Assembly (NCBI GenBank): GCA_964596875.1
Contig: CAZQVT010000001.1
Span: 42,514 to 106,513 of the forward strand
DNA length: 64,000 nucleotides
Reading direction: 5' to 3'
DNA from: an uncultured Candidatus Saccharibacteria bacterium
GTDB taxonomy: Bacteria; Patescibacteriota; Minisyncoccia; Phycocordibacterales; DATDWN01
Position 1 is the stretch's first letter, and each line of letters starts with the position of its first letter. Positions 6,988 through 55,005 of the stretch are shown here, one piece after another. The notes under the pieces are model-generated. The model made no database searches. It saw nothing but the letters and a program-made list of their open reading frames with translations, and was not told the origin of the DNA. The position numbers and the translations under genes were made by a program.

Positions 6988-7020
6988 TTAACCGTTCCTT
7001 TCACCGCCCTAGGAGGCAGC

Positions 7021-7335
7021 ATGCAGAACTTCATGGTCAACGTCGTCACCTCGTCGGTTCAGTATCCCGTCGAGAATCCGAGGCTCGATCCGATCTTCGA
7101 CATGAACCAGACCATCCTCCTCCAGTTCGGGCCCTGCTCGAAGGCGGAGGGTGACGCTGTCGCGGACCGCATCAACGCATGGGTTCGTGGTGGCGAAGGT
7201 CGTGGTGCGGCTGAAGCCTTCCGTATTCTGGGACTGGATCAGAGAACGAAAGACGTCTGGGCATCCTGCGACGAAATCCCAACCGCGGGCATCTCGGAAC
7301 TCATCAAAAAGTTCCAGGTGGAAATCCCCGTTTGA
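7021..7335 (+). CDS. hypothetical protein, high-GC island gene (104 aa)
   Basis: AGGAGG RBS 7 nt upstream; GC3-rich codons (gtc/acc/tcg/ggc) unlike host; ORF track 6940..7335 extends upstream but ATG 7021 has the RBS. Confidence 0.5.
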   Translation: MQNFMVNVVTSSVQYPVENPRLDPIFDMNQTILLQFGPCSKAEGDAVADRINAWVRGGEGRGAAEAFRILGLDQRTKDVWASCDEIPTAGISELIKKFQVEIPV

Positions 7336-7526
7336 TCCACGTAACGATCCGTCTCTGGCGCGTCAGCCCAGTATCGTCCGAGGAAGTCATATATTCCTCG
7401 GACTTCCTTCAGAGAATTTAATTCTTAATTAAATGTTCTGAAGGAACGAACAGTTCCATCAAAGTAATTAAACTTTTGATTTCTTTGATGGGACAATTCC
7501 GTCCCTGTTCTTTTAGGAGGTTACCG

Positions 7527-7715
7527 ATGAAAGTTTACATCGTCATGCAGCAGGACCCACACGGAGAGGGTTCGCAGATCATGGGGGTGTACTTGGATAA
7601 GGCGAAAGCCGATGCCGAGGCCGCTGCCATGGTTCACACCATTGCCGTGGACGACGAGGGGCAGGATGTGGAGGTGTGCACTGGAGGTGTGGTAGAGCAT
7701 GAGGTAATCGAGTAA
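7527..7715 (+). CDS. hypothetical small acidic protein, high-GC island gene (62 aa)
   Basis: TTTTAGGAGGttaccgATG RBS; GC3-rich codons; MKVYIVMQQDPHGEG... Confidence 0.45.
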   Translation: MKVYIVMQQDPHGEGSQIMGVYLDKAKADAEAAAMVHTIAVDDEGQDVEVCTGGVVEHEVIE

Positions 7716-7911
7716 GGTAAGTCGTCAGTCTCATTAGGTAACTGACGTAAAAGGGAGTTAAGCTACCCGCCTGCCATGGCAAAGTGCTGATGACCTGAAT
7801 CGGGCGCTCGGAGAGATCCAGCGCCTTTTCGTTTGTAAGAAATACTACTAACAAAATTTTGTTGAGCCATAATTTTTATGGAACATCGCGGAGTGAGTGA
7901 ATAGTGAGTGA

Positions 7912-18262: not shown

Positions 18263-19513
18263 TTACCTCCAGGTAGTTTTGACGCTAAAGATAGCATTCC
18301 AAGCTGCTTTGCCGATCCATAGAGGTGCAATAAACATATATAAAGACAGGTAATAAATCAAGTCTAGGCCAAGGTCAAGTTTGTTCTCTGACATTCTCTT
18401 TGACATTAGTATCATTAGAAATGACCCTATAGCAACAACTAGTCCAACAAGGGCTATTATCTCTGTATTTACGTAAAATAGGTCAAAATTAGGCATTCCT
18501 AGGTGTAGGTTTAGGCCCACAGTTTGGACTCTAACAAACCAGTTTGCTAGGCCATCTATAATAGAGTAAATAGATACGCTAGAAACAAAAAGAACTGAAA
18601 CTATAGAAATACATGCCATCGGAAGTATAAGCATTCCGACATTTCCATATTTTTTATTGAAAATCATGTCTCTAAAATCGTAGGCATTTTTTATAAAACC
18701 ATATGACCAGCGAACTCTCTGTTTCAAAAGTTTTTTAACAGTTTCTGGAGGAACTGTGTATACGATAGCCTCATGCGCATGAGCGATTTTGAAACCATTT
18801 TTTTGCATGCGAAGTGCTATTTGGATATCTTCGGTGTTGTGAGCGTGTTCGTATCCACCCAGTTTTTCAAATACATCTTTTCTAAATATAGAAAATGGTC
18901 CAGGAGTAATGTAGATAGCATCCATGTAGTGGTACATTTTTCTAGTGAAAATACCGAAGCCGTACTCTACTTTCTGAAGCAGTTGCAAAATGTTTCTTGG
19001 TTGCCAAAGTTTGATAGAAGGTGCAACCGCCATAACTTCTCTGTCTTCAAAGTAAAGAGCGATTTTTTTCATGCTGTCCTTGTGTACATAAGAGTCGGCA
19101 TCAAGGCATCCAACAAGGTCTGTAGTTAGTTTTGAAATACCATAGTTTAGTGCGGTGTATTTACCACCGTTTTCTTTTGTGTGAAGTTCTATTTGTTTAT
19201 TATTTCTAAACTTCTGCACCACATTCCATGTACTGTCTGTACTACCGTCGTCCACTACCATGATTTTCAGTTTGTCTTTCGGGTAGTCTAGGTTCAGTAG
19301 AGAGTGAATAGTTTTTGAAACTGTTTTTTCTTCATTCCAGCAAGGTACGATAATAGTAACAGAAGGGTATTTTTTCAGTTTTACATTTGCTTGGGCTTTT
19401 GACTCGGCTTTGATTTCTTTGCGGTTTTCAAAGTAAGTTATGAGCAAAAAGATCTCAAAATTTAGAGAAATGAACAGAAAGAAATATGTTACGTAGTTGT
19501 TTATATCACTCAT
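18263..19513 (-). CDS. processive family-2 glycosyltransferase (cellulose/chitin-synthase-like, membrane)
   Basis: VDDGSTD (DxD region), QRVRW (QxxRW) motif, flanking TM helices; 416 aa. Confidence 0.75.
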   Translation of the reverse strand: MSDINNYVTYFFLFISLNFEIFLLITYFENRKEIKAESKAQANVKLKKYPSVTIIVPCWNEEKTVSKTIHSLLNLDYPKDKLKIMVVDDGSTDSTWNVVQKFRNNKQIELHTKENGGKYTALNYGISKLTTDLVGCLDADSYVHKDSMKKIALYFEDREVMAVAPSIKLWQPRNILQLLQKVEYGFGIFTRKMYHYMDAIYITPGPFSIFRKDVFEKLGGYEHAHNTEDIQIALRMQKNGFKIAHAHEAIVYTVPPETVKKLLKQRVRWSYGFIKNAYDFRDMIFNKKYGNVGMLILPMACISIVSVLFVSSVSIYSIIDGLANWFVRVQTVGLNLHLGMPNFDLFYVNTEIIALVGLVVAIGSFLMILMSKRMSENKLDLGLDLIYYLSLYMFIAPLWIGKAAWNAIFSVKTTWR

Positions 19514-28883: not shown

Positions 28884-28956
28884 AGCACAACACTAGGCTT
28901 TTCTGCGATACATTGACATAATCCATAAATGGTTTATTGTGTTTTAGGGGGGGCGC

Positions 28957-47342: not shown

Positions 47343-47425
47343 TAAAATATATAAAGTGTGTTATTGTAACTCTCGCTACTTTTACGACATAAAGTCGATA
47401 CTTGCTAGCATGGAGTTCTTTCTCA

Positions 47426-48295
47426 ATGATGAAGCGTCTGCTCCTCCCCGTCTTCACCGCGATCCTCATGATGCCGTCGCTCGGCTTCGCTCAGGGCACC
47501 GTCGTCTTCTCGAACCTGCCGTCGCCCACGCCGGGCAACATCCCGTCCTTGGGCTACCAGTGCTGCTCGGTCTCCGAGTTCGGCGACCGCGTGCACCTCG
47601 AGGCCGACACGCCCCGGCGTGCCAGCAGCGCGACGGTTCTGATGTCGTCGTGGTCGCTCCACTCGAACTACCCGACGATGTCCGCGGCCGGCTACAAGCA
47701 CCCGATCACGCTCGCGGTCTACGCGAACGACGCGGCGGCCCTGGCGCATTCGCCCTTGGCAACCGTGACCCAGATGATGGACATCCCGTGGCGGCCCGAG
47801 GCCGACCCGACCTGTCCCGGCGGGACGGCATGGCGCGCAACGAACGGCCAGTGCTACAACGGCATGGCCTTCACGCTCACGTTCGACCTGCGCAGTCTGA
47901 ACCTCACGCTCCCGGACGAGTTCGTCTGGGGTGTGGCGTACAACACGCAGACCTGGGGCTACAACCCGCTCGGCGTCGCCGGCCCGTACGAGTCGCTCAA
48001 CGTCGGCACGACCGCTTCGGCGCCGTCAGTCGGCGTCGATGTGGATCCGGACGTGGCGTACGTCAACTACGCCGTGGCGGGGTTCTACTCCGACCTCGGC
48101 GCGGGTGGCACGAACACCTTCCGCGCCGATACGGCATGGACGGGATTCGCTCCCTCGGCGGAGTTCACCACGGTTGCCGTTCCGGCGACCACCGGTGAGT
48201 GCAAGAACGGAGCCTGGCAGAACCTGGTCCGGCGTGACTTCACGCCGTTCAAGAACCAGGGAGCCTGCGTCTCCTACGTCAACACCGGCAAGTAG
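47426..48295 (+). CDS. secreted hypothetical protein, very high-GC island gene (~65% GC, 289 aa)
   Basis: signal peptide MMKRLLLPVFTAILMMPSLGFAQG; extreme GC3 bias (ccg/ggc/acg/gtc); followed by CGGCGGTCCtcagGGACCGCCGCTTTTTTAT terminator. Confidence 0.5.
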   Translation: MMKRLLLPVFTAILMMPSLGFAQGTVVFSNLPSPTPGNIPSLGYQCCSVSEFGDRVHLEADTPRRASSATVLMSSWSLHSNYPTMSAAGYKHPITLAVYANDAAALAHSPLATVTQMMDIPWRPEADPTCPGGTAWRATNGQCYNGMAFTLTFDLRSLNLTLPDEFVWGVAYNTQTWGYNPLGVAGPYESLNVGTTASAPSVGVDVDPDVAYVNYAVAGFYSDLGAGGTNTFRADTAWTGFAPSAEFTTVAVPATTGECKNGAWQNLVRRDFTPFKNQGACVSYVNTGK

Positions 48296-48321
48296 CCGGC
48301 AACAACACCAGTCATCGGGAA

Positions 48322-48357
48322 GATGTCCGGCGGTCCTCAGGGACCGCCGCTTTTTTA
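48322..48357 (+). terminator. rho-independent terminator
   Basis: GTCCGGCGGTCCTCAGGGACCGCCGCTTTTTTATAAA. Confidence 0.7.
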
Positions 48358-48401
48358 TAAAATAGGAAATGAATTTGTGTTGTATTTATTATATAGAACC
48401 C

Positions 48402-48430
48402 ATAGTGTCAAAGAGTCTCTTTGACACTAT
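48402..48430. repeat. perfect 29-nt palindrome ATAGTGTCAAAGAGtcTCTTTGACACTAT (REP-like) at 3' end of transposase gene
   Basis: self-complementary; second copy of core at 49041..49063. Confidence 0.8.
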
Positions 48431-49031
48431 AGTTCAAGGTTTCATGCTTAAAATCATTAATATTTTTAAATTTATTAAGAACAAAATCAGTTGTTATGAA
48501 TGAAAGGTTTCTGTTTTTTAAATAATCATTGTAACTACTCCAAATATATTTATAAGGGTTATCAGTAATTTTATCTTTTACTGGATTCATATGAATATAT
48601 GCAGTTGTCCATAAGAGTTGCGAGTCACTTTCAATCATTGTTGCTTTAAAACAGTCCTGAAATAGATGCCCAATTTTTTTGTATTTTTGATTTATGTACT
48701 TTGAATAACTCGTACAGACTTTCGAAACCAATTTTGAAATGGGCACGTCACTTAACTGTTCTATTAATAAATGAAAATGATTTGGCATTAGACAAAATGC
48801 GTGAATCTGAAATTGATTCTTGGCACCATAAATCCTAATTCTTGAAAATGGAACCGTAGTTAGATTATTTTTATTTAATTCTTTTGAATCTATTCCGAGA
48901 GCGAGCCCAAGTCTATATAGAAATGCTCTATAATCTTGTGGGTCTAAAAATATTCTTTCTTTATTATTTCCTCTATTGTAAATATGAGCTACTATACCCT
49001 GATCAAAATTTTTATAGTCCCTTTTGTTCAT
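48408..49031 (-). mobile_element. IS200/IS605-family Y1 (HuH) transposase, REP-associated tyrosine transposase (RAYT)-like
   Basis: HuH motif LMPNHFHLLIE and catalytic-Tyr motif TAYIHMNPV (RAYT YIHxNPV); 207 aa; flanked by palindromes at both ends. Confidence 0.7.
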
Positions 49032-49040
49032 GAAATGAGT

Positions 49041-49063
49041 ATGTCAAAGAGTCTCTTTGACAT
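49041..49063. repeat. 23-nt palindrome ATGTCAAAGAGtcTCTTTGACAT (REP-like) 10 nt upstream of transposase start
   Basis: same core TGTCAAAGAGTCTCTTTGACA as 48405..48427. Confidence 0.8.
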
Positions 49064-49162
49064 CAAGTTAGATAAAAATTGGGAAATGAAATAATTAAAT
49101 GTAAAGTGTACCTTTTGGGAAATAAGAGTAGTATACCGGCTAATACTAATTAACATAAATAC

Positions 49163-51988
49163 ATGAAGAATCTTCGAATCGCGATGTTTCTTTCAGTGGT
49201 TTCTTTGTCTGCTTATTTCTATTTTTACAATACAGTTTCAGCAGCTATAGTGTTTGACCAATCACCAACAGATCTTACAGGTCAAACTTTAAGTGACGCA
49301 GTATTGAACAATGGATACTTAACTAGTTTTACATGTACCGGCAGTTTAAGTTGTGGAGTATCTGGTCAAACTATTTATAATGTTGGTGTTTGGATAAAAA
49401 AGGTTGGTAATCCAGACGATGTTCGTTTGCAAGTTGGTGGAAGTTATAACGATCGAGACTTTGGTACTACCACTTTATCTAATATTGTTCCGGCGAGTTC
49501 TATTTCTGATACAGAGTATAATTTTAAATGGTTTTATTTTCCGGAAGGTGTTGTAATAGGAAATCGTTTTGATTTAGATCAGTTCTTCTTTTTTAAGTAT
49601 GCAAATAGTATAGATATAGACAGGGTCACTGACTACTACATGGTTTTAAAAAATGATGTAAATAATTATTCAGCTCAAGCACAGTGGTGTAGAAAATATC
49701 AGGGTTGCTACTCATCAGTATTTTTCTGGAAAATGGATGATTCTAGCATTGATCTATCTACGACCACTCCTCCAATTTGCACATTAAATTGTAGTTCGAG
49801 TGTGATGTTTTTCCCAGGAGTTATGGGTAGTAAACTTTATGATGCAAATGGAGAGTTGTGGGTTTCAAGATCTGGAACAGAACAAGCAAAACTTTTACTG
49901 GATTCTGGTGGCAAAAGTGTAAATACTGTTTTTACAAAAGATGATACTCAAAATATAAGTATCAACGAATCAGAGACTGGTTTAGTTGATGAAGTTTTTG
50001 GATCAAATATTTATAACTCTTTTATTGATAGTCTTAGAGGTTGGAAACAAGATGGAACAGTCTCAGATTATGCTTTTATACCTTATGACTGGAGACTTTC
50101 GCTAGATAATATTATAACTAACGGAGCATCTACAACTGCCGGGGATTTATCATATACTAACAGCCAGAATTTTTCTGAAAGTTATATTTTGAAAAAGTTG
50201 GAAGAACTACAGAAAAATTCTGAGTCAGGAAAAGTTACACTTATTGGGCATTCTAATGGAGGTTTGGTTATAAAAGCACTGGTTCAAAAACTAAAAGATA
50301 CAAATAACCCCCTGTATAACAAGATAGATAAAATAATTTTAGTTGCTGTGCCACAGGTTGGAACTCCAGATGCAGTGGCGAGTTTGCTACATGGAACAAG
50401 TCTTGGAAAAGGTTTTGTTATGAGAAATGAAAGACTACGTGATCTGGCAAAAAACATGCCAACGATGTATAACCTGTTGCCGTCAGATGGGTATTTTTCA
50501 ATGATAGACCCAAATGTGCCAAACGATAAGATAGTTTCATTCCAAAATGATCCGGCATTTTCTGCTCAACTAAATCAATACGGAGTTTATGTGTCTAATC
50601 CACTTGAATTCAAAAACTATATTTTAGGAAGTGATGGCAGAAGTGTCCCGTCGTATTCTGATACAGATAAGCCAATTATAGGAAACTCAATTTTATACGA
50701 TAATGCGAAAACGGTGCACAGCGTTTTGGATAACTGGTCGCCAGCATCTACAACAAAAGTTATTCAAGTTGCTGGTTGGGGAAGCGAAACAATATCTGGG
50801 ATTAGTTATAAAAAATGTTACGACATGAGCATCGAGGGTTACCATAAATGTCCAAAAATAAATAACGTTGTTGATGGCGACGGTACAGTCGTTGTTCCAA
50901 GTGCACTATGGATGCCTGTTTCTAATTCAAATATTGAAAGATGGTGGGTAGATTTGGCAAGTTACGACACCATATCAAATGTTGAAAGAGAGCATAGAGA
51001 TATTTTAGAAGTTAAAAATCTAAGGGATTTTATTAAATCTGAAATTAAAAATGAAGTCTGGAATGATTCGAACGAAATAGTTGTGGGTAACACATCTACA
51101 CTTGTTCCAGACGGAGAATATTTACACTATACATTGCATTCACCACTTTCACTTGGTGTTTACGATAACCTTGGAAGATATACAGGACTAGACCAGGTAA
51201 CTGGAGATATTGTAGAAGACATACCAAATTCAAAATATGTAGTTATTGGAGATACTCAGTTTGTATCTGTTCCGGAAAGTATTTCAGGACAAGTTAGACT
51301 TCGAGGTGTTAGTGATGGTGTGTTTACTCTAGACATTGAGAAACAAACTGGTAATACAGTTGTAGATGCTGTAACTATAGGTGGAGTGCCAAGTTTGACT
51401 CAAACAGTTGCGTATCTAGATATAAACTCAAATCTTGCAAGTACAACTCTAAATATAGATAAAAACGGTGATGGAGTATTTGAAAAGCAAATAAATACAA
51501 ATGGTAAAAGTGAAGTGTTGTATGACGATGTGCCACCAGAAATTTCTGTATCATATTCAACAACTACAAAAAATATTATTTTTGGAGGCATAGATAAAAA
51601 TTTGGCTGGAGTTACTGTTTCTACTAGTACAGTTACTGCTTACGATGAGCAGGGCAATAAAACAACACTCTATTTCTCTGGTCTGAAAAATGAGAAAAGT
51701 GAATCAAAAGTGGTATTAAGGAAAATATCTAGAAATGGCAAGGAGGAGTCACTAAAAAATATTGAAATAAAGTTCGAGGTAGATATGAAAAAAAACGGAA
51801 TAATAGCCGAATTTAAATCAGAAGTTGAAGCTGGTGACAGTGAGTTATTTAGTTTGAAGTATGAACAAGAAAAGGGTGTAACTAAGATAAGGGAAAAAAC
51901 ATCAACTGGAATAGTTAGTGTTAGTAGGCCAGGACTTGTAATAGAAAAAATTATAACCATTGGAACGGGATTCAGGTTTGAATACTAG
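49163..51988 (+). CDS. large secreted/membrane-anchored protein with alpha/beta-hydrolase (lipase/esterase GHSxG) domain
   Basis: N-terminal TM anchor; LIGHSNGGLVIKALV nucleophile-elbow motif; 941 aa. Confidence 0.5.
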   Translation: MKNLRIAMFLSVVSLSAYFYFYNTVSAAIVFDQSPTDLTGQTLSDAVLNNGYLTSFTCTGSLSCGVSGQTIYNVGVWIKKVGNPDDVRLQVGGSYNDRDFGTTTLSNIVPASSISDTEYNFKWFYFPEGVVIGNRFDLDQFFFFKYANSIDIDRVTDYYMVLKNDVNNYSAQAQWCRKYQGCYSSVFFWKMDDSSIDLSTTTPPICTLNCSSSVMFFPGVMGSKLYDANGELWVSRSGTEQAKLLLDSGGKSVNTVFTKDDTQNISINESETGLVDEVFGSNIYNSFIDSLRGWKQDGTVSDYAFIPYDWRLSLDNIITNGASTTAGDLSYTNSQNFSESYILKKLEELQKNSESGKVTLIGHSNGGLVIKALVQKLKDTNNPLYNKIDKIILVAVPQVGTPDAVASLLHGTSLGKGFVMRNERLRDLAKNMPTMYNLLPSDGYFSMIDPNVPNDKIVSFQNDPAFSAQLNQYGVYVSNPLEFKNYILGSDGRSVPSYSDTDKPIIGNSILYDNAKTVHSVLDNWSPASTTKVIQVAGWGSETISGISYKKCYDMSIEGYHKCPKINNVVDGDGTVVVPSALWMPVSNSNIERWWVDLASYDTISNVEREHRDILEVKNLRDFIKSEIKNEVWNDSNEIVVGNTSTLVPDGEYLHYTLHSPLSLGVYDNLGRYTGLDQVTGDIVEDIPNSKYVVIGDTQFVSVPESISGQVRLRGVSDGVFTLDIEKQTGNTVVDAVTIGGVPSLTQTVAYLDINSNLASTTLNIDKNGDGVFEKQINTNGKSEVLYDDVPPEISVSYSTTTKNIIFGGIDKNLAGVTVSTSTVTAYDEQGNKTTLYFSGLKNEKSESKVVLRKISRNGKEESLKNIEIKFEVDMKKNGIIAEFKSEVEAGDSELFSLKYEQEKGVTKIREKTSTGIVSVSRPGLVIEKIITIGTGFRFEY

Positions 51989-52010
51989 TTTAGGGTGGTA
52001 TAATTAATAT

Positions 52011-52379
52011 ATGAAAACAAATAGATTAAAATACTCATTTATTTTTTTATTAGTCATCGCTATTTCTTATTATATAAATATTGAAACGAACACAAGACTT
52101 TTAAGAAAACTTAGCGAATTCACATTCTGGATGAGTTTTTCAGTTTTTGTCATTTCAGTTATATCTGTCTTTATAAAAGAAAACGCATATCTTGCCTGGA
52201 AAAAGTTTACAAATTATTATCTAGCATTTGCAGTCCTAGTTATACTAATAACTCCTACATCAACTCATGGTATGGATTTCTTTCCGATAGTTAAAGAAAC
52301 AGTCACTGTAGCATTGTCTATTTTGTATGCTGGAATTTCACTTCCTCTTATCGTTTACAAATCATTCAAAATGGACTAG
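52011..52379 (+). CDS. hypothetical membrane protein (3-4 TM)
   Basis: 122-aa hydrophobic ORF. Confidence 0.4.
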   Translation: MKTNRLKYSFIFLLVIAISYYINIETNTRLLRKLSEFTFWMSFSVFVISVISVFIKENAYLAWKKFTNYYLAFAVLVILITPTSTHGMDFFPIVKETVTVALSILYAGISLPLIVYKSFKMD

Positions 52380-52389
52380 GGTTAGATTG

Positions 52390-53019
52390 ATGAAGGATTT
52401 TGATGCAAAAACATATAAGGATTCGAAGGGTGGTTTTAATAATGAAGATGAGAATCTTTTGATTTTATTGTTGAGTGAAAATGAAGACAAGAAAACTATT
52501 TTGGATGTTGGTTGTGGAGATGGTTTGCTAACACAAAAGATAAAAAATAATTTCCCGGGTTCAGATATAGTCGGTATAGATAATTCTGTAGAGCAAATAG
52601 ATATGGCGAAAAGTTCTGGAGCCAGTGTTGTTTTTGAAGTTGCGGATATTTCTGAATACAGGCCAGATAAAAAATTTGACGCAGTCTACTCTTTTTATGC
52701 ATTTCCACATATGCCTAAAAGCAAAATATCAAAGGCACTTGCTAATGTAAAAAGCTTACTAAAAGAGGGTGGGAAGTTTTACCTTTTTACAAACATATGC
52801 CTTTTTGATACATCTATTGCAACACCAGAAGACCAGGAGGCGTGTGATGTTGTCTTTTTAGAAAATTGGCCATCTCAAATAAACCTTACTTCTGTGGAAG
52901 AAATGAGAGAACTGCTTAAGATAAATAGTTTAAGTATTGTTTCTGAAAAGCGTTTACAAACTGGTGCAAAAGTGAAAGATTATGGAGATATGGTTTCTTG
53001 GCTTTTTATTCTAAATTAA
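52390..53019 (+). CDS. class I SAM-dependent methyltransferase
   Basis: ILDVGCGDGLLT motif I, acidic motif II; ORF track starts 52327 inside previous gene, ATG 52390 preferred. Confidence 0.6.
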   Translation: MKDFDAKTYKDSKGGFNNEDENLLILLLSENEDKKTILDVGCGDGLLTQKIKNNFPGSDIVGIDNSVEQIDMAKSSGASVVFEVADISEYRPDKKFDAVYSFYAFPHMPKSKISKALANVKSLLKEGGKFYLFTNICLFDTSIATPEDQEACDVVFLENWPSQINLTSVEEMRELLKINSLSIVSEKRLQTGAKVKDYGDMVSWLFILN

Positions 53020-53023
53020 AGAT

Positions 53024-53470
53024 ATGAACAATTCTGAAAATAAAGTGTTTTTCTATGAAAGAGAGTTTTACCCTTTTTCAAACTTCTCATCATTTGCTTT
53101 AGAGTGGAAGGGGTATTTATATATGACTTCAGAGCATGCTTACCAAACAGAAAAGTTTTTAGATGTAGAAATAATTAAGGAGATAAGAGAAACAAAGTCC
53201 GCTCATGAAGTTTTTGTGCTTTCTAGAAAATACGAAGACAAGGTCCGACCAGACTGGATGGATATTAGAGTTTCGGTAATGGAGGAAATACTAAGAGAAA
53301 AAATAAGACAGCATGAGTATGTTAGGCAGAAACTTCTAGAAACCGGAGATAGGGAAATAATAGAGGATTCTCACAGAGATGACTTTTGGGGTTGGGGACC
53401 AAATAAAGATGGTCAAAATAATTTAGGAAAAATCTGGATGAAGTTGCGGGGAGAACTAAAGAATAAATAA
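53024..53470 (+). CDS. NADAR-domain protein (YbiA/DUF1768 family)
   Basis: FYPFSNFS...EWKGYLYMTSEHAYQTEKF...DFWGWG matches the NADAR fold signature; 148 aa. Confidence 0.65.
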   Translation: MNNSENKVFFYEREFYPFSNFSSFALEWKGYLYMTSEHAYQTEKFLDVEIIKEIRETKSAHEVFVLSRKYEDKVRPDWMDIRVSVMEEILREKIRQHEYVRQKLLETGDREIIEDSHRDDFWGWGPNKDGQNNLGKIWMKLRGELKNK

Positions 53471-53471
53471 T

Positions 53472-53837
53472 ATGAAAAAGGGAAACCTGAATACCCAGCT
53501 GGCGGGGTCAAAAAGAAATGGTTCAATTATAAACAAACTTGGTAGACTTGGTGATAGTCATAACCCAATTTTTAATACAAAAAATATTCCTCCAATAGAG
53601 GTGCGATGGATTAGGTTAAATAAGGGTGATGAAAAAACCATCCCGCATAAACATGAAGAAATACAAACACTCATTACCTTGATCCGTGGCAGGCACGATA
53701 TAACAATAAATAAAAAGACAAAAGTAATCTTACAAAAAGAAGGCGACTACGTTTTTATTGAGCCGGGTGATTTGCATTGCTGGAAAACAAAGAAAAATAC
53801 TTTACTTCTGGTCGTGAGATGGAAAGTCAAAAAATAA
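53472..53837 (+). CDS. small cupin-like beta-barrel protein
   Basis: HKHEE...GDYVFIEPGDLHCW pattern consistent with cupin motifs; 121 aa. Confidence 0.35.
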   Translation: MKKGNLNTQLAGSKRNGSIINKLGRLGDSHNPIFNTKNIPPIEVRWIRLNKGDEKTIPHKHEEIQTLITLIRGRHDITINKKTKVILQKEGDYVFIEPGDLHCWKTKKNTLLLVVRWKVKK

Positions 53838-53838
53838 A

Positions 53839-54453
53839 ATGAAAATTGAAAAGAGAAGTATTGCGGAAAATATCTACTTGCTGAGGTTTGAAAATCAGAC
53901 GGAACTTGCCTCTACTTTTTTGCGGTTTCAGGAACACTACGAGTCGCCAGAGTTTCGGGGAAAGTTTTTTACATTAGACGAATACAAAAAATGGTACACA
54001 CAAGCTAGGGGAGACTTTACCTACTATAGCGACTGGTCTGGTTTCAATATTCCTTCACATATCCTAAAGCCTTTTCTGGAAGGAAAGTTTGACCCACTTA
54101 CGGACAAGGAGAAAATTTTCCTAGAATATTTTACCGACGTGCCTCACCCTTTTTATATTATTGGACTTTCGGGGGATACGGATACTGAAAAAACAAAACT
54201 AACTCTAGATCATGAAACAGCGCATGGGATGTACTACACCAAACCAGAATACAGAAAAAAAGTAGATGAGGTTTTGAAAAAATATGACCTTTCAAAAATA
54301 AAAGAATGGCTACGTTCAATGAGCGGTTACCATGAGTCTGTTTTGGACGACGAGTCGCATGCCTATACCCTTTTTGGTTTTGAAAAGATAATAGAAAAAA
54401 TCCCCGAAGGTATGAAGGAGGAACTAGACGCCATTTTCCAGGAGTTTAAATAG
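53839..54453 (+). CDS. hypothetical protein with HExxH (DHETAHGMYY) putative metallopeptidase motif
   Basis: 204 aa; 1-nt spacing from upstream gene (operon). Confidence 0.3.
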   Translation: MKIEKRSIAENIYLLRFENQTELASTFLRFQEHYESPEFRGKFFTLDEYKKWYTQARGDFTYYSDWSGFNIPSHILKPFLEGKFDPLTDKEKIFLEYFTDVPHPFYIIGLSGDTDTEKTKLTLDHETAHGMYYTKPEYRKKVDEVLKKYDLSKIKEWLRSMSGYHESVLDDESHAYTLFGFEKIIEKIPEGMKEELDAIFQEFK

Positions 54454-54502
54454 GTTTGATTTTGGGGAAGTTTTGTGGGTAAATACTGTGTGGGGAGGTG
54501 GC

Positions 54503-54721
54503 ATGGGGCTCATCGCTAATCTCGTTTCGTGGTCTGAGGCTGTGTCGTGGGTGTGGCAGGTGTTGCCCGGATGGGCACAGAAGTACCTGATCTTCCACAT
54601 CTGCTGTGTGGCGGCGTGTACCATCTGGGTCTGTAACAGCTACCGAACGACTCGCAGGTTGCCTCAGAACTACAAAGTTCTGGGTGACCCGTACAAGGTG
54701 CAGCTTCCGAACGTGAAGTAG
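54503..54721 (+). CDS. small hydrophobic protein, high-GC island gene (72 aa)
   Basis: GGGGAGGtggcATG RBS; ORF track start 54473 lacks RBS; GC-rich versus flanks. Confidence 0.4.
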   Translation: MGLIANLVSWSEAVSWVWQVLPGWAQKYLIFHICCVAACTIWVCNSYRTTRRLPQNYKVLGDPYKVQLPNVK

Positions 54722-55005
54722 TCTCGGCCTCGACTGTTGTTGTGCAAAAGGTGTGTGTCGTTACGGCACCGCCTTTTTGTTATACAAAAATAAAAAGTGA
54801 TATAATCTAGATATGACAAACAGAACAACAAAAAATAGTTTTACTACATTAAACACAGGTAGCAAAAAAAGTGGAAAGAGTATGAGTATAAAACCGAAAA
54901 TGAAAGGTAAGGCACCACGACCAAGCAGAACTAACGGATAAAATAAAAACTTGTGATATAATATTTTGTATAAATTATTAAAATTATTATTTAACTAAAT
55001 AAAAT

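Follow-up and report, generated by a model that had tools for sequence, protein, structure and literature searches.

Whether a transposase-like gene with palindromes at both ends is a mobile element, a gene with ordinary expression signals or a domesticated enzyme that lives together with its own DNA repeat is the question raised by one locus on contig CAZQVT010000001.1 of an uncultured Candidatus Saccharibacteria bacterium, of which a stretch of 64,000 nucleotides (called the window in the following) was analyzed. The gene at this locus encodes a protein resembling the REP-associated tyrosine transposases (RAYTs; REP, repetitive extragenic palindrome) and is flanked on either side by a perfect palindrome. 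We consider it probable, at roughly 0.7, that gene and palindromes form a unit of the REPtron/TIRtron type, that is, a vertically inherited, single-copy gene for a RAYT-like Y1/HUH enzyme bounded by palindromes which this enzyme would recognize. This assignment is built on sequence comparisons and on analogy to characterized systems. The elements of the unit are the following (positions refer to the window):

48408-49031, minus strand: predicted gene for a RAYT-like Y1/HUH single-strand DNA endonuclease/ligase of 207 amino acids (open reading frame (ORF); Pfam Y1_Tnp; fold match of the AlphaFold (AF2) model)
48771-48782, minus strand: HUH motif N84-H85-F86-H87, translated as NHFH, invariant in 40 homologs and aligned with PEHMH of 4ER8
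48582-48599, minus strand: catalytic tyrosine motif Y145-IHMNP, translated as YIHMNP and aligned with YIYINP of 4ER8
48402-48430, no strand assigned: palindrome at the 3′ flank, 29 nt, perfect (core 21-mer 48406-48426), with 14-nt arms that are 100% complementary and one central base
49041-49063, no strand assigned: palindrome at the 5′ flank, 23 nt, perfect, ATGTCAAAGAGTCTCTTTGACAT (core 21-mer 49042-49062), ending 9 nt before the ATG

Coordinates and sequences of the ORF and of both palindromes are as given in an initial annotation of the window. A search of the protein against Pfam yielded Y1_Tnp (PF01797; E = 1.6e-12, 48 bits, gathering score 23) as the only family at E ≤ 1, and no C-terminal helix-turn-helix (HTH) domain was detected in this search; the last 40 residues form three short helices in the AF2 model. 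A profile of the 40 homologs had the E. coli TnpA_REP structure 4ER8 as its sole sequence match in the PDB, with PNHFH pairing with PEHMH and YIHMNPVK with YIYINPVK; a single-sequence phmmer search of the PDB returned only noise. The AF2 model (pLDDT 87.6) also had 4er8_A as its top Foldseek match (E = 6.5e-7, TM 0.71), followed by the TnpA proteins of ISDra2, IS608, and IS200 (entries including 2xm3, 2a6m, and 2vjv). Residues N84, H85, F86, H87, Y145, H147, and N149 are invariant across the 40 homologs, and since the residues of the HUH and tyrosine motifs are among them, catalytic activity is presumably retained. Both motifs had been read in the initial annotation, and the alignment to family models that it proposed as a check came out in its favor.

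With respect to the family, YIHMNP conforms to the class 2 (TnpA_REP-type) signature Y---NP, IS200 having Y---Q instead (PMC6006769). The third motif of the protein, read by inspection against Table 1 of the same paper (PMC6006769), is GHLFQD. The best NCBIfam model was REP_Tyr_transpos (NF047646) with 63.4 bits, the IS200 model reaching 19.8 bits, and both scores are below the respective cut-offs of 80 and 55. These observations support the view that the protein is a Y1/HUH enzyme closer to RAYTs than to IS200, in agreement with the initial annotation, which had called it RAYT-like and a relative of IS200/IS605 TnpA. Homologs form more than 5000 clusters at 90% identity, most of them on one or a few contigs, and 9204 representatives of a 50%-cluster library match at E ≤ 1e-10. 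The best matches are 58-66% identical and almost all 207-208 amino acids long, the closest non-self match in the databases being 66% identical, and the best-scoring homologs with a named source are all from Patescibacteria. In phage and plasmid collections the family is almost absent (one and 21 weak matches, respectively).

Both palindromes contain exactly the same 21-mer, TGTCAAAGAGTCTCTTTGACA, which can be written as TGTCAAAGAG-T-CTCTTTGACA, and together with the two core 21-mers the gene makes up a unit of 657 bp (48406-49062). A pattern with a 2-nt centre, which had been proposed for genome-wide searches, gave no match; the actual centre is 1 nt. The window contains the 21-mer exactly twice with up to three mismatches allowed (chance expectation 0.01), and none of 100 shuffled windows yielded two copies. 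A half-site search returned one further exact TGTCAAAGAG at 18396-18405, without a partner arm, and a total count at chance level. Folded as single-stranded DNA, the left site forms a stem of 13 bp (-12.8/-14.0 kcal/mol, z = -7) and the right site a stem of 10 bp (-8.3 kcal/mol, z = -4), both of them stable on either strand. At Rfam gathering scores the window yielded one tRNA only and nothing at the palindromes. The stop codon of the gene lies inside the left palindrome and SVKETL* is encoded by 48408-48428 (minus strand), as had been recognized in the initial annotation. An imperfect 18-nt direct repeat (48356-48373 and 49073-49090, 83%) was considered as a target duplication and rejected as probable chance similarity, because the DNA is AT-rich and other 17-18-nt matches at about 80% were present in the same output. 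As a separate observation, the sequence TTGACA, which is the -35 consensus of sigma-70, forms the end of every palindrome arm and points outward (48421-48426 and 49057-49062 on the plus strand, 48406-48411 and 49042-49047 on the minus strand). No properly spaced -10 element was found for these in the window, and promoter-like sites in a sigma-70 scan of the window were no commoner than in shuffles.

The association between gene and palindrome extends to related genomes. For 80 metagenome loci, the best palindrome at each gene end was sought without specifying a sequence, and TGTCAA[A/G]G-N5-C[T/C]TTGACA was returned in nearly all of them. A comparison set of 84 loci with proteins 53-67% identical was probed with this motif. 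An upstream copy, 9-25 nt away from the ATG, was present in 77 of these loci, a copy at the 3′ end in 70 and both copies in 66, the start-to-start distance of the two flanking copies being 624-687 nt. At positions left free in the probe, the outer-end T and A are each kept in 145 and G8/C14 in 143 of 147 copies. The sole variable arm position (pair 4) is A-T in 98 and G-C in 49, with neither a mismatch nor a wobble pair among the 147. The 5-nt centre differs between genomes, and extra copies in one locus mostly have the centre specific to that locus. The orientation of the flanking copies to each other is random, 30 pairs being inverted and 28 direct.

A stop-anchored comparison placed the motif in the exact register of the window in 38 of 75 distinct loci, with the resulting C-termini VKETL*, VKGHL*, VKDGL*, VKESL*, VKDAL*, and VKDAP*. 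Coding of the protein C-terminus by the palindrome is therefore a family trait, about half of the family ending in VKxxL*. Five loci hold a second RAYT-like gene that is about 30% identical to the first. All four paralogs examined are flanked by their own, different palindrome pair (CACTTGGCG...CGCCAAGTG; AAAACGGAAGC...GCTTCCGTTTT; TAGGTGT-N3-ACACCTA), and the 3′ copy of the L084 paralog likewise encodes the C-terminus. These second genes are located 5-8 kb from the first:

L053, 6582-7127: second RAYT-like paralog
L075, 15033-15584: second RAYT-like paralog
L078, 7659-8219: second RAYT-like paralog
L084, 17545-18093: second RAYT-like paralog

One enzyme with its own repeat is regarded as a hallmark of RAYT systems (PMC6006769). 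The counts at both gene ends, together with the paralogs and their separate pairs, support the claim of the initial annotation that the palindromes are cognate to the enzyme gene, as far as can be judged from sequence. In some genomes the same RAYT subfamily is represented by more than a single gene-palindrome pair: contigs Ga0209541_10002754 (L083/L092) and Ga0265292_1000181 (L102/L127) each carry two copies of the subfamily, with different centres. The base composition of the gene deviates from its surroundings in nearly every genome, the GC content of the ORF being about 8-10 points below the locus average (0.24-0.39 vs. 0.28-0.49); in the window the values are 0.29 and 0.39.

The next question is whether the palindrome also occurs away from the gene. 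Dispersal was scanned in one genome per species (596 Gb) with the exact 19-mer GTCAAAGAGNCTCTTTGAC. This returned 46 genome loci, about 33 of them in metagenome-assembled genomes (MAGs) of Patescibacteria (mostly Nomurabacteria/Paceibacterota), and a RAYT gene adjoins only three of the 46. Several contigs of one MAG were matched in some cases (e.g., MFUU01 four times and DATDWZ01 three times), and related MAGs carry 2-4 exact copies on separate contigs. Roughly nine matches are expected in 596 Gb by our own estimate of uniform chance, and the scattered matches outside the candidate phyla radiation (CPR) fit this expectation. About 10 further distant copies were found across the 80 metagenome loci. 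Dispersal in related genomes is real but low-copy. The possibility raised in the initial annotation, that the palindromes are the source of dispersed copies, thus agrees with the few copies per genome seen in relatives and finds no counterpart in the window itself.

About half of the solo copies are located inside long ORFs, in frame, and are translated as MSK[S/R]LFD or CQR[D/V]SLT, two of the three reading frames of the 21-nt palindrome being open in both orientations. The host genes encode ArgRS, MurC, AsnB, Dus, PurD, and a reverse transcriptase, all confirmed by Pfam, as well as IleRS, which was assigned by eye, and a probable methyltransferase. The inserts were found in the following loci:

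L006, L011, L024, L026, L029, L030, L036, L044, L002, and L047: in-frame inserts of 21 nt (7 codons)

The ileS copy occupies the same position in two species with flanks about 66% identical and has a 37-nt extended stem with a compensatory A/T to G/C change; the copy in the reverse-transcriptase gene is also found at an orthologous position. Two palindromes lying 31 nt apart form a doublet, about 52 nt long, that is present in frame in the genes for Dus (L002) and PurD (L047) between unrelated flanks, and its presence in two unrelated genes argues for mobility. Aligned PurD orthologs do not contain the doublet, and several of them bear other inserts in the same loop. The palindromic element has moved, rarely, and its copies persist.

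Two observations on other repeats were made alongside. The PurD loop of Patescibacteria (alignment columns ~425-460) contains unrelated inserts in several species, e.g., SPLEEYPLGGGG...TPSRKRATPQEGN in P0248, P0280, P0310, and P0328, which resemble the translated copies of a different repeat family that is rich in GC. MAGs of Prevotella (L014, L017, L018, L023, L033, L034, L043, and L046) carry a look-alike multi-copy palindrome, GTCAAAGAG[G/C]CTCTTTGAC, which adjoins GTCAAAGGGCC-type repeats and is present in five copies in one Prevotella genome.

The gene itself is present once in the window, and its position in relatives is largely constant. Among 39 loci with enough flanking sequence, gyrA lies less than 1 kb downstream in convergent orientation in 30, and a gene for a 174-amino acid methyltransferase is located immediately upstream in 24; further upstream, neighbor clustering identified proteins of 429 and 139 amino acids. 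About three quarters of the relatives show the order methyltransferase - RAYT - gyrA. With a single copy and conserved synteny, the RAYT-like gene behaves as a domesticated gene and not like an insertion sequence (IS), and it looks domesticated rather than mobile as far as gene order can tell. A scan of IMG/VR for the palindrome motif gave 13 single matches, which is roughly chance level by our own estimate.

How such a unit might work can be proposed by analogy to IS608 TnpA and E. coli TnpA_REP. Whenever the DNA is single-stranded, e.g., on the lagging-strand template, the palindromes would fold into hairpins of 9-10 bp, to which the enzyme would bind; the HUH-bound metal and Tyr145 would then nick and rejoin the strand via a 5′-phosphotyrosine intermediate. 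Owing to the symmetry of the arms, the site could be presented by either strand. Such an activity may have seeded the small set of identical 21-nt palindromes that related genomes contain singly or as doublets, in intergenic as well as in-frame intragenic positions, while the enzyme gene would have stayed in place with its own flanks as the ancestral ends.

Several points weigh against this proposal. No copy of the palindrome beyond the two flanks was found in the window (up to three mismatches allowed), which leaves an activity of the enzyme in this particular genome putative, and none of the canonical neighbors (the 174-amino acid methyltransferase, gyrA, etc.) is present in the window. The score of the best NCBIfam model stays under its curated cut-off, as mentioned above. 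The foot of the palindrome reads TGTC/GACA and has no 5′ GT[AG]G tag, which in REPs stands at the foot of an imperfect hairpin, the hairpins here are perfect, and the base preceding the foot is variable (A 85, C 26, G 23, and T 13 of 147). The orthologous ileS copies in two species show long-term retention, not turnover. Furthermore, invariant arms, a free loop, random orientation, and the complete lack of G-T wobble would fit recognition of duplex half-sites at least as well as that of a hairpin, and a dimer reading two duplex half-sites would explain this pattern equally well. As these features fit the hairpin model less well, a role of the palindromes as host sites or docking sites for gene cassettes is kept in consideration below.

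Comparison with known systems places the unit between two of them. E. coli TnpA_REP (RayT/YafM) and its REPtron were reportedly described by Nunvar in 2010 and by Ton-Hoang and Messing in 2012. This system shares with the unit the Y1/HUH fold and the HUH and Y---NP motifs (PDB 4ER8; PMC3479197, PMC6006769), a single-copy chromosomal gene with palindromes on both sides and, as seen in related MAGs for the present unit, elsewhere in the genome, a separate repeat family for each paralog, and vertical inheritance, which is deduced from synteny in the present case. However, the protein from the window is only about 15% identical to 4ER8 and falls under the NCBIfam cut-off. In contrast to canonical REPs, the palindromes described here are perfectly symmetric over 21 nt without 5′ GT[AG]G tag or bulges, amount to a handful per genome where REPs reach hundreds, and flank the gene in random relative orientation; their arms are conserved over many Patescibacteria species with diverged proteins, whereas REPs are species-specific.

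The TIRYTs (Di Nocera, 2013; PMC3733652) were equated with subclass 2.1 of TnpA_Y1 by Quentin (2018; PMC6006769). For this subclass the motifs NH[YF]H, FQ or W[EQ], and Y[IV]HLNP are given, and it is reported to have no REP-like hairpins (PMC6006769). By inspection, the motifs NHFH, FQD, and YIHMNP match this set, which makes it the nearest subclass. In TIRYT units, inverted repeats flank the gene; some are self-complementary, some overlap the ORF at its 5′ or 3′ end, and the repeat families are small or absent, all of which resembles the present unit. Unlike subclass 2.1, the protein has 207 amino acids in comparison to a median of 238, and the C-terminal HTH of the subclass (Bac_DnaA_C/HTH_23/HTH_28-like) remains undetected by Pfam; the repeat is TGTCAARG-N5-CYTTGACA and not GGGGWSAS, and each flank is a complete hairpin-forming palindrome. 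The unit thus departs from canonical RAYTs in two tests (curated score, GTAG tag) and from TIRYTs in two others (HTH tail, GGGGWSAS). By analogy, it would work like both RAYT/REP and TIRYT/TIR systems; it is a recognizable variant of the RAYT/REP kind rather than a canonical RAYT.

A further parallel exists for the in-frame copies. Rickettsia palindromic elements (RPE) were reportedly described by Ogata in 2000. RPE and intragenic REPs (PMC3733652) are likewise short palindromic elements that are in frame in housekeeping genes and kept at orthologous positions. The present element differs from RPE by its length of 21 nt (7 codons) and by being tied to a dedicated gene for a Y1 enzyme.

Among the alternatives to the REPtron/TIRtron-type unit, a host-function system survives best, even though we regard it as unlikely. 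Here, a RAYT-derived protein would act on a few conserved chromosomal palindromes to the benefit of the cell; possible variants are site-specific recombination with docking of gene cassettes beside gyrA, or a chromosome-organizing site that is bound as double-stranded DNA. Such a function would be consistent with 8-nt arms that are invariant across proteins only 55-65% identical, with the fixed N5 spacing and the lack of wobble, with the low copy number, with the orthologously conserved positions in ileS and the reverse-transcriptase gene, and with the fixed locus beside gyrA. It would also be consistent with the organization of the slot between the 3′ palindrome of the RAYT gene and gyrA. In relatives, a single convergent gene occupies this slot. 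Its kind varies (judged by eye, a methyltransferase of 170-180 amino acids or a NUDIX-, HIT-, cupin-, or dehydrogenase-like protein), and a third palindrome that has the same centre tightly encloses it. The GC content of the slot is above that of the RAYT gene and near the locus average in L068 and L112. The slot was found in the following loci:

L051, L052, L054, L064, L067-L071, L100, L117, and L119, 1-1000 nt downstream of the RAYT gene: slot with one variable gene

In the window, the place downstream of the 3′ palindrome is taken by a sharply bounded island of about 66% GC (~47,420-48,350), which lies 50 nt from the palindrome in a window of 39% GC. It contains one gene for a secreted protein of 289-297 amino acids without Pfam hit and a GC-rich terminator. 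Homologs of this protein with a named source that are 53-63% identical belong to Vicinamibacterales, Gemmatimonadaceae, and Pyrinomonadaceae, most matches being unnamed, and one relative, from Parcubacteria bacterium C7867-003, is 87% identical and located at the same PIF1-PGA_cap locus. A chimeric assembly as the origin of the GC-rich neighbor was rejected on the basis of this shared locus, which instead argues for an old horizontal acquisition; the gene looks like an old inter-phylum transfer into CPR as judged from its homologs. An independent assembly of the same run (Logan SRR12712864, contig L001, 7433 bp) extends 68 nt beyond the RAYT stop codon and breaks off within the terminator hairpin of the GC-rich gene, at the AT/GC junction, which it confirms.

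Compared with Parcubacteria C7867-003 (L128, 6,880-6,952), the window has an extra 6.6 kb (~48,307-54,941). This segment starts shortly upstream of the 3′ palindrome of the RAYT gene and contains the RAYT unit, an LCAT-like 941-amino acid protein, a 122-amino acid ORF, a methyltransferase, NADAR, a cupin, and a 204-amino acid ORF. The immediate neighbors of the RAYT gene are the LCAT-like hydrolase and the secreted protein without Pfam hit. Since a 120-nt piece (54,830-54,951) matches the L128 segment on the opposite side of the GC-rich gene, the region appears to be a rearrangement hot spot. The start of the extra segment beside the palindrome is suggestive, as a single case, of palindrome-associated rearrangement at the window copy.

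Taken one step further, the palindromes could be more than transposon relics and serve a domesticated HUH recombinase as docking sites, at which single-gene cassettes would be swapped in an integron-like manner, with a Y1 enzyme and hairpin sites. Grounds for this idea, which is as doubtful as the host-function system in general, are the variable palindrome-bracketed gene in the slot of relatives, the 3′ palindrome of the window abutting a 66% GC gene with non-CPR homologs in Acidobacteriota and Gemmatimonadota together with a 6.6-kb lineage-specific segment, and the view of the RAYT gene itself as one such cassette that is able to relocate. However, slot genes are mostly singletons without a sign of movement, and the commonest one (174-amino acid methyltransferase, 8 loci) may simply be ancestral. 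Furthermore, the far end of the 6.6-kb island has no palindrome, and its genes (methyltransferase, NADAR, cupin, and others) have no homologs among the related loci compared, including the genes of the gyrA slot.

Apart from this locus, the window contains two further GC-enriched stretches, 28,950-29,750 (56%), located between ORFs resembling thrS and dnaE, and 7,001-7,750 (53%). Neither contains a convincing protein ORF or an Rfam match even at E ≤ 0.1, and they may be unannotated structured RNAs.

Somewhat less likely still is that the palindromes serve as expression signals only, the 5′ copy as an operator or a stem occluding the ribosome-binding site and the 3′ copy as a terminator or mRNA-stabilizing stem, without being a DNA substrate of the enzyme. 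The positions of the copies, 9-25 nt from the ATG and at the stop codon, would suit such signals, as would the 3′ copy between convergent genes in relatives and the left palindrome of the window, which scored as terminator-like on the coding strand with a T-poor tail, GTTCTATATA. Effects of REPs on mRNA stability and termination are also known (PMC3733652). Nevertheless, the same 21-mer is found in frame within ileS, argS, murC, asnB, dus, and purD, genes in which a terminator would do harm, unrelated genes contain inserted doublets, most copies are not followed by a T-run, and each paralog has its own palindrome, as expected of enzyme-substrate pairs. The initial annotation had held that a palindrome confined to this one locus would argue for a simple terminator; this confinement is seen within the window, but is overturned by the related genomes. 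Roles in expression and as enzyme substrate are not mutually exclusive.

The least likely alternative is an autonomous minimal IS200-like insertion sequence, in which the 657-bp unit would move as a whole with the palindromes as its ends and the window copy as a recent insertion. In its favor, the two repeats bound the gene tightly, the window copy is not at the canonical gyrA locus and coincides with a break in synteny to Parcubacteria C7867-003, and the GC content of the ORF is lower than that of its surroundings by 8-10 points in nearly all loci. Fold, catalytic residues, and hairpins in subterminal position at either end of a unit measuring about 0.7 kb, with a stem near the start codon as in IS200, are shared with TnpA of IS200/IS605 (IS608, ISDra2, IS200). 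Against it, there is one copy in the window and no near-identical copy in the databases (best non-self match 66%), synteny is kept in about three quarters of loci, the score with the IS200 model is 20 bits (cut-off 55), the tyrosine motif is Y---NP and not Y---Q, the ends are identical, symmetric, and randomly oriented, unlike the distinct left and right ends of IS200/IS605, no TnpB gene is adjacent, and the family is rare on plasmids and phages.

The REPtron/TIRtron-type unit, with the reservations given above, therefore remains our preferred reading. RAYT/REP systems, known mostly from Proteobacteria, Cyanobacteria, and Bacteroidetes, are the textbook case of a domesticated transposase that coexists with a repeat family of its own; in our full-text literature searches no paper linking RAYTs or REPs to Patescibacteria was found. 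The in-frame inserts of 21 nt matter for the annotation and alignment of CPR proteins, and an enzyme of 207 amino acids with a perfect palindrome of 21 bp offers a simple and tractable system for what RAYTs do. Although extremely reduced, the genomes of Patescibacteria have retained at least one such enzyme. Its locus next to gyrA is fixed, and the palindrome arms are frozen across many species whose enzymes are no more than 53-67% identical, which argues that the pair does something the cell needs.

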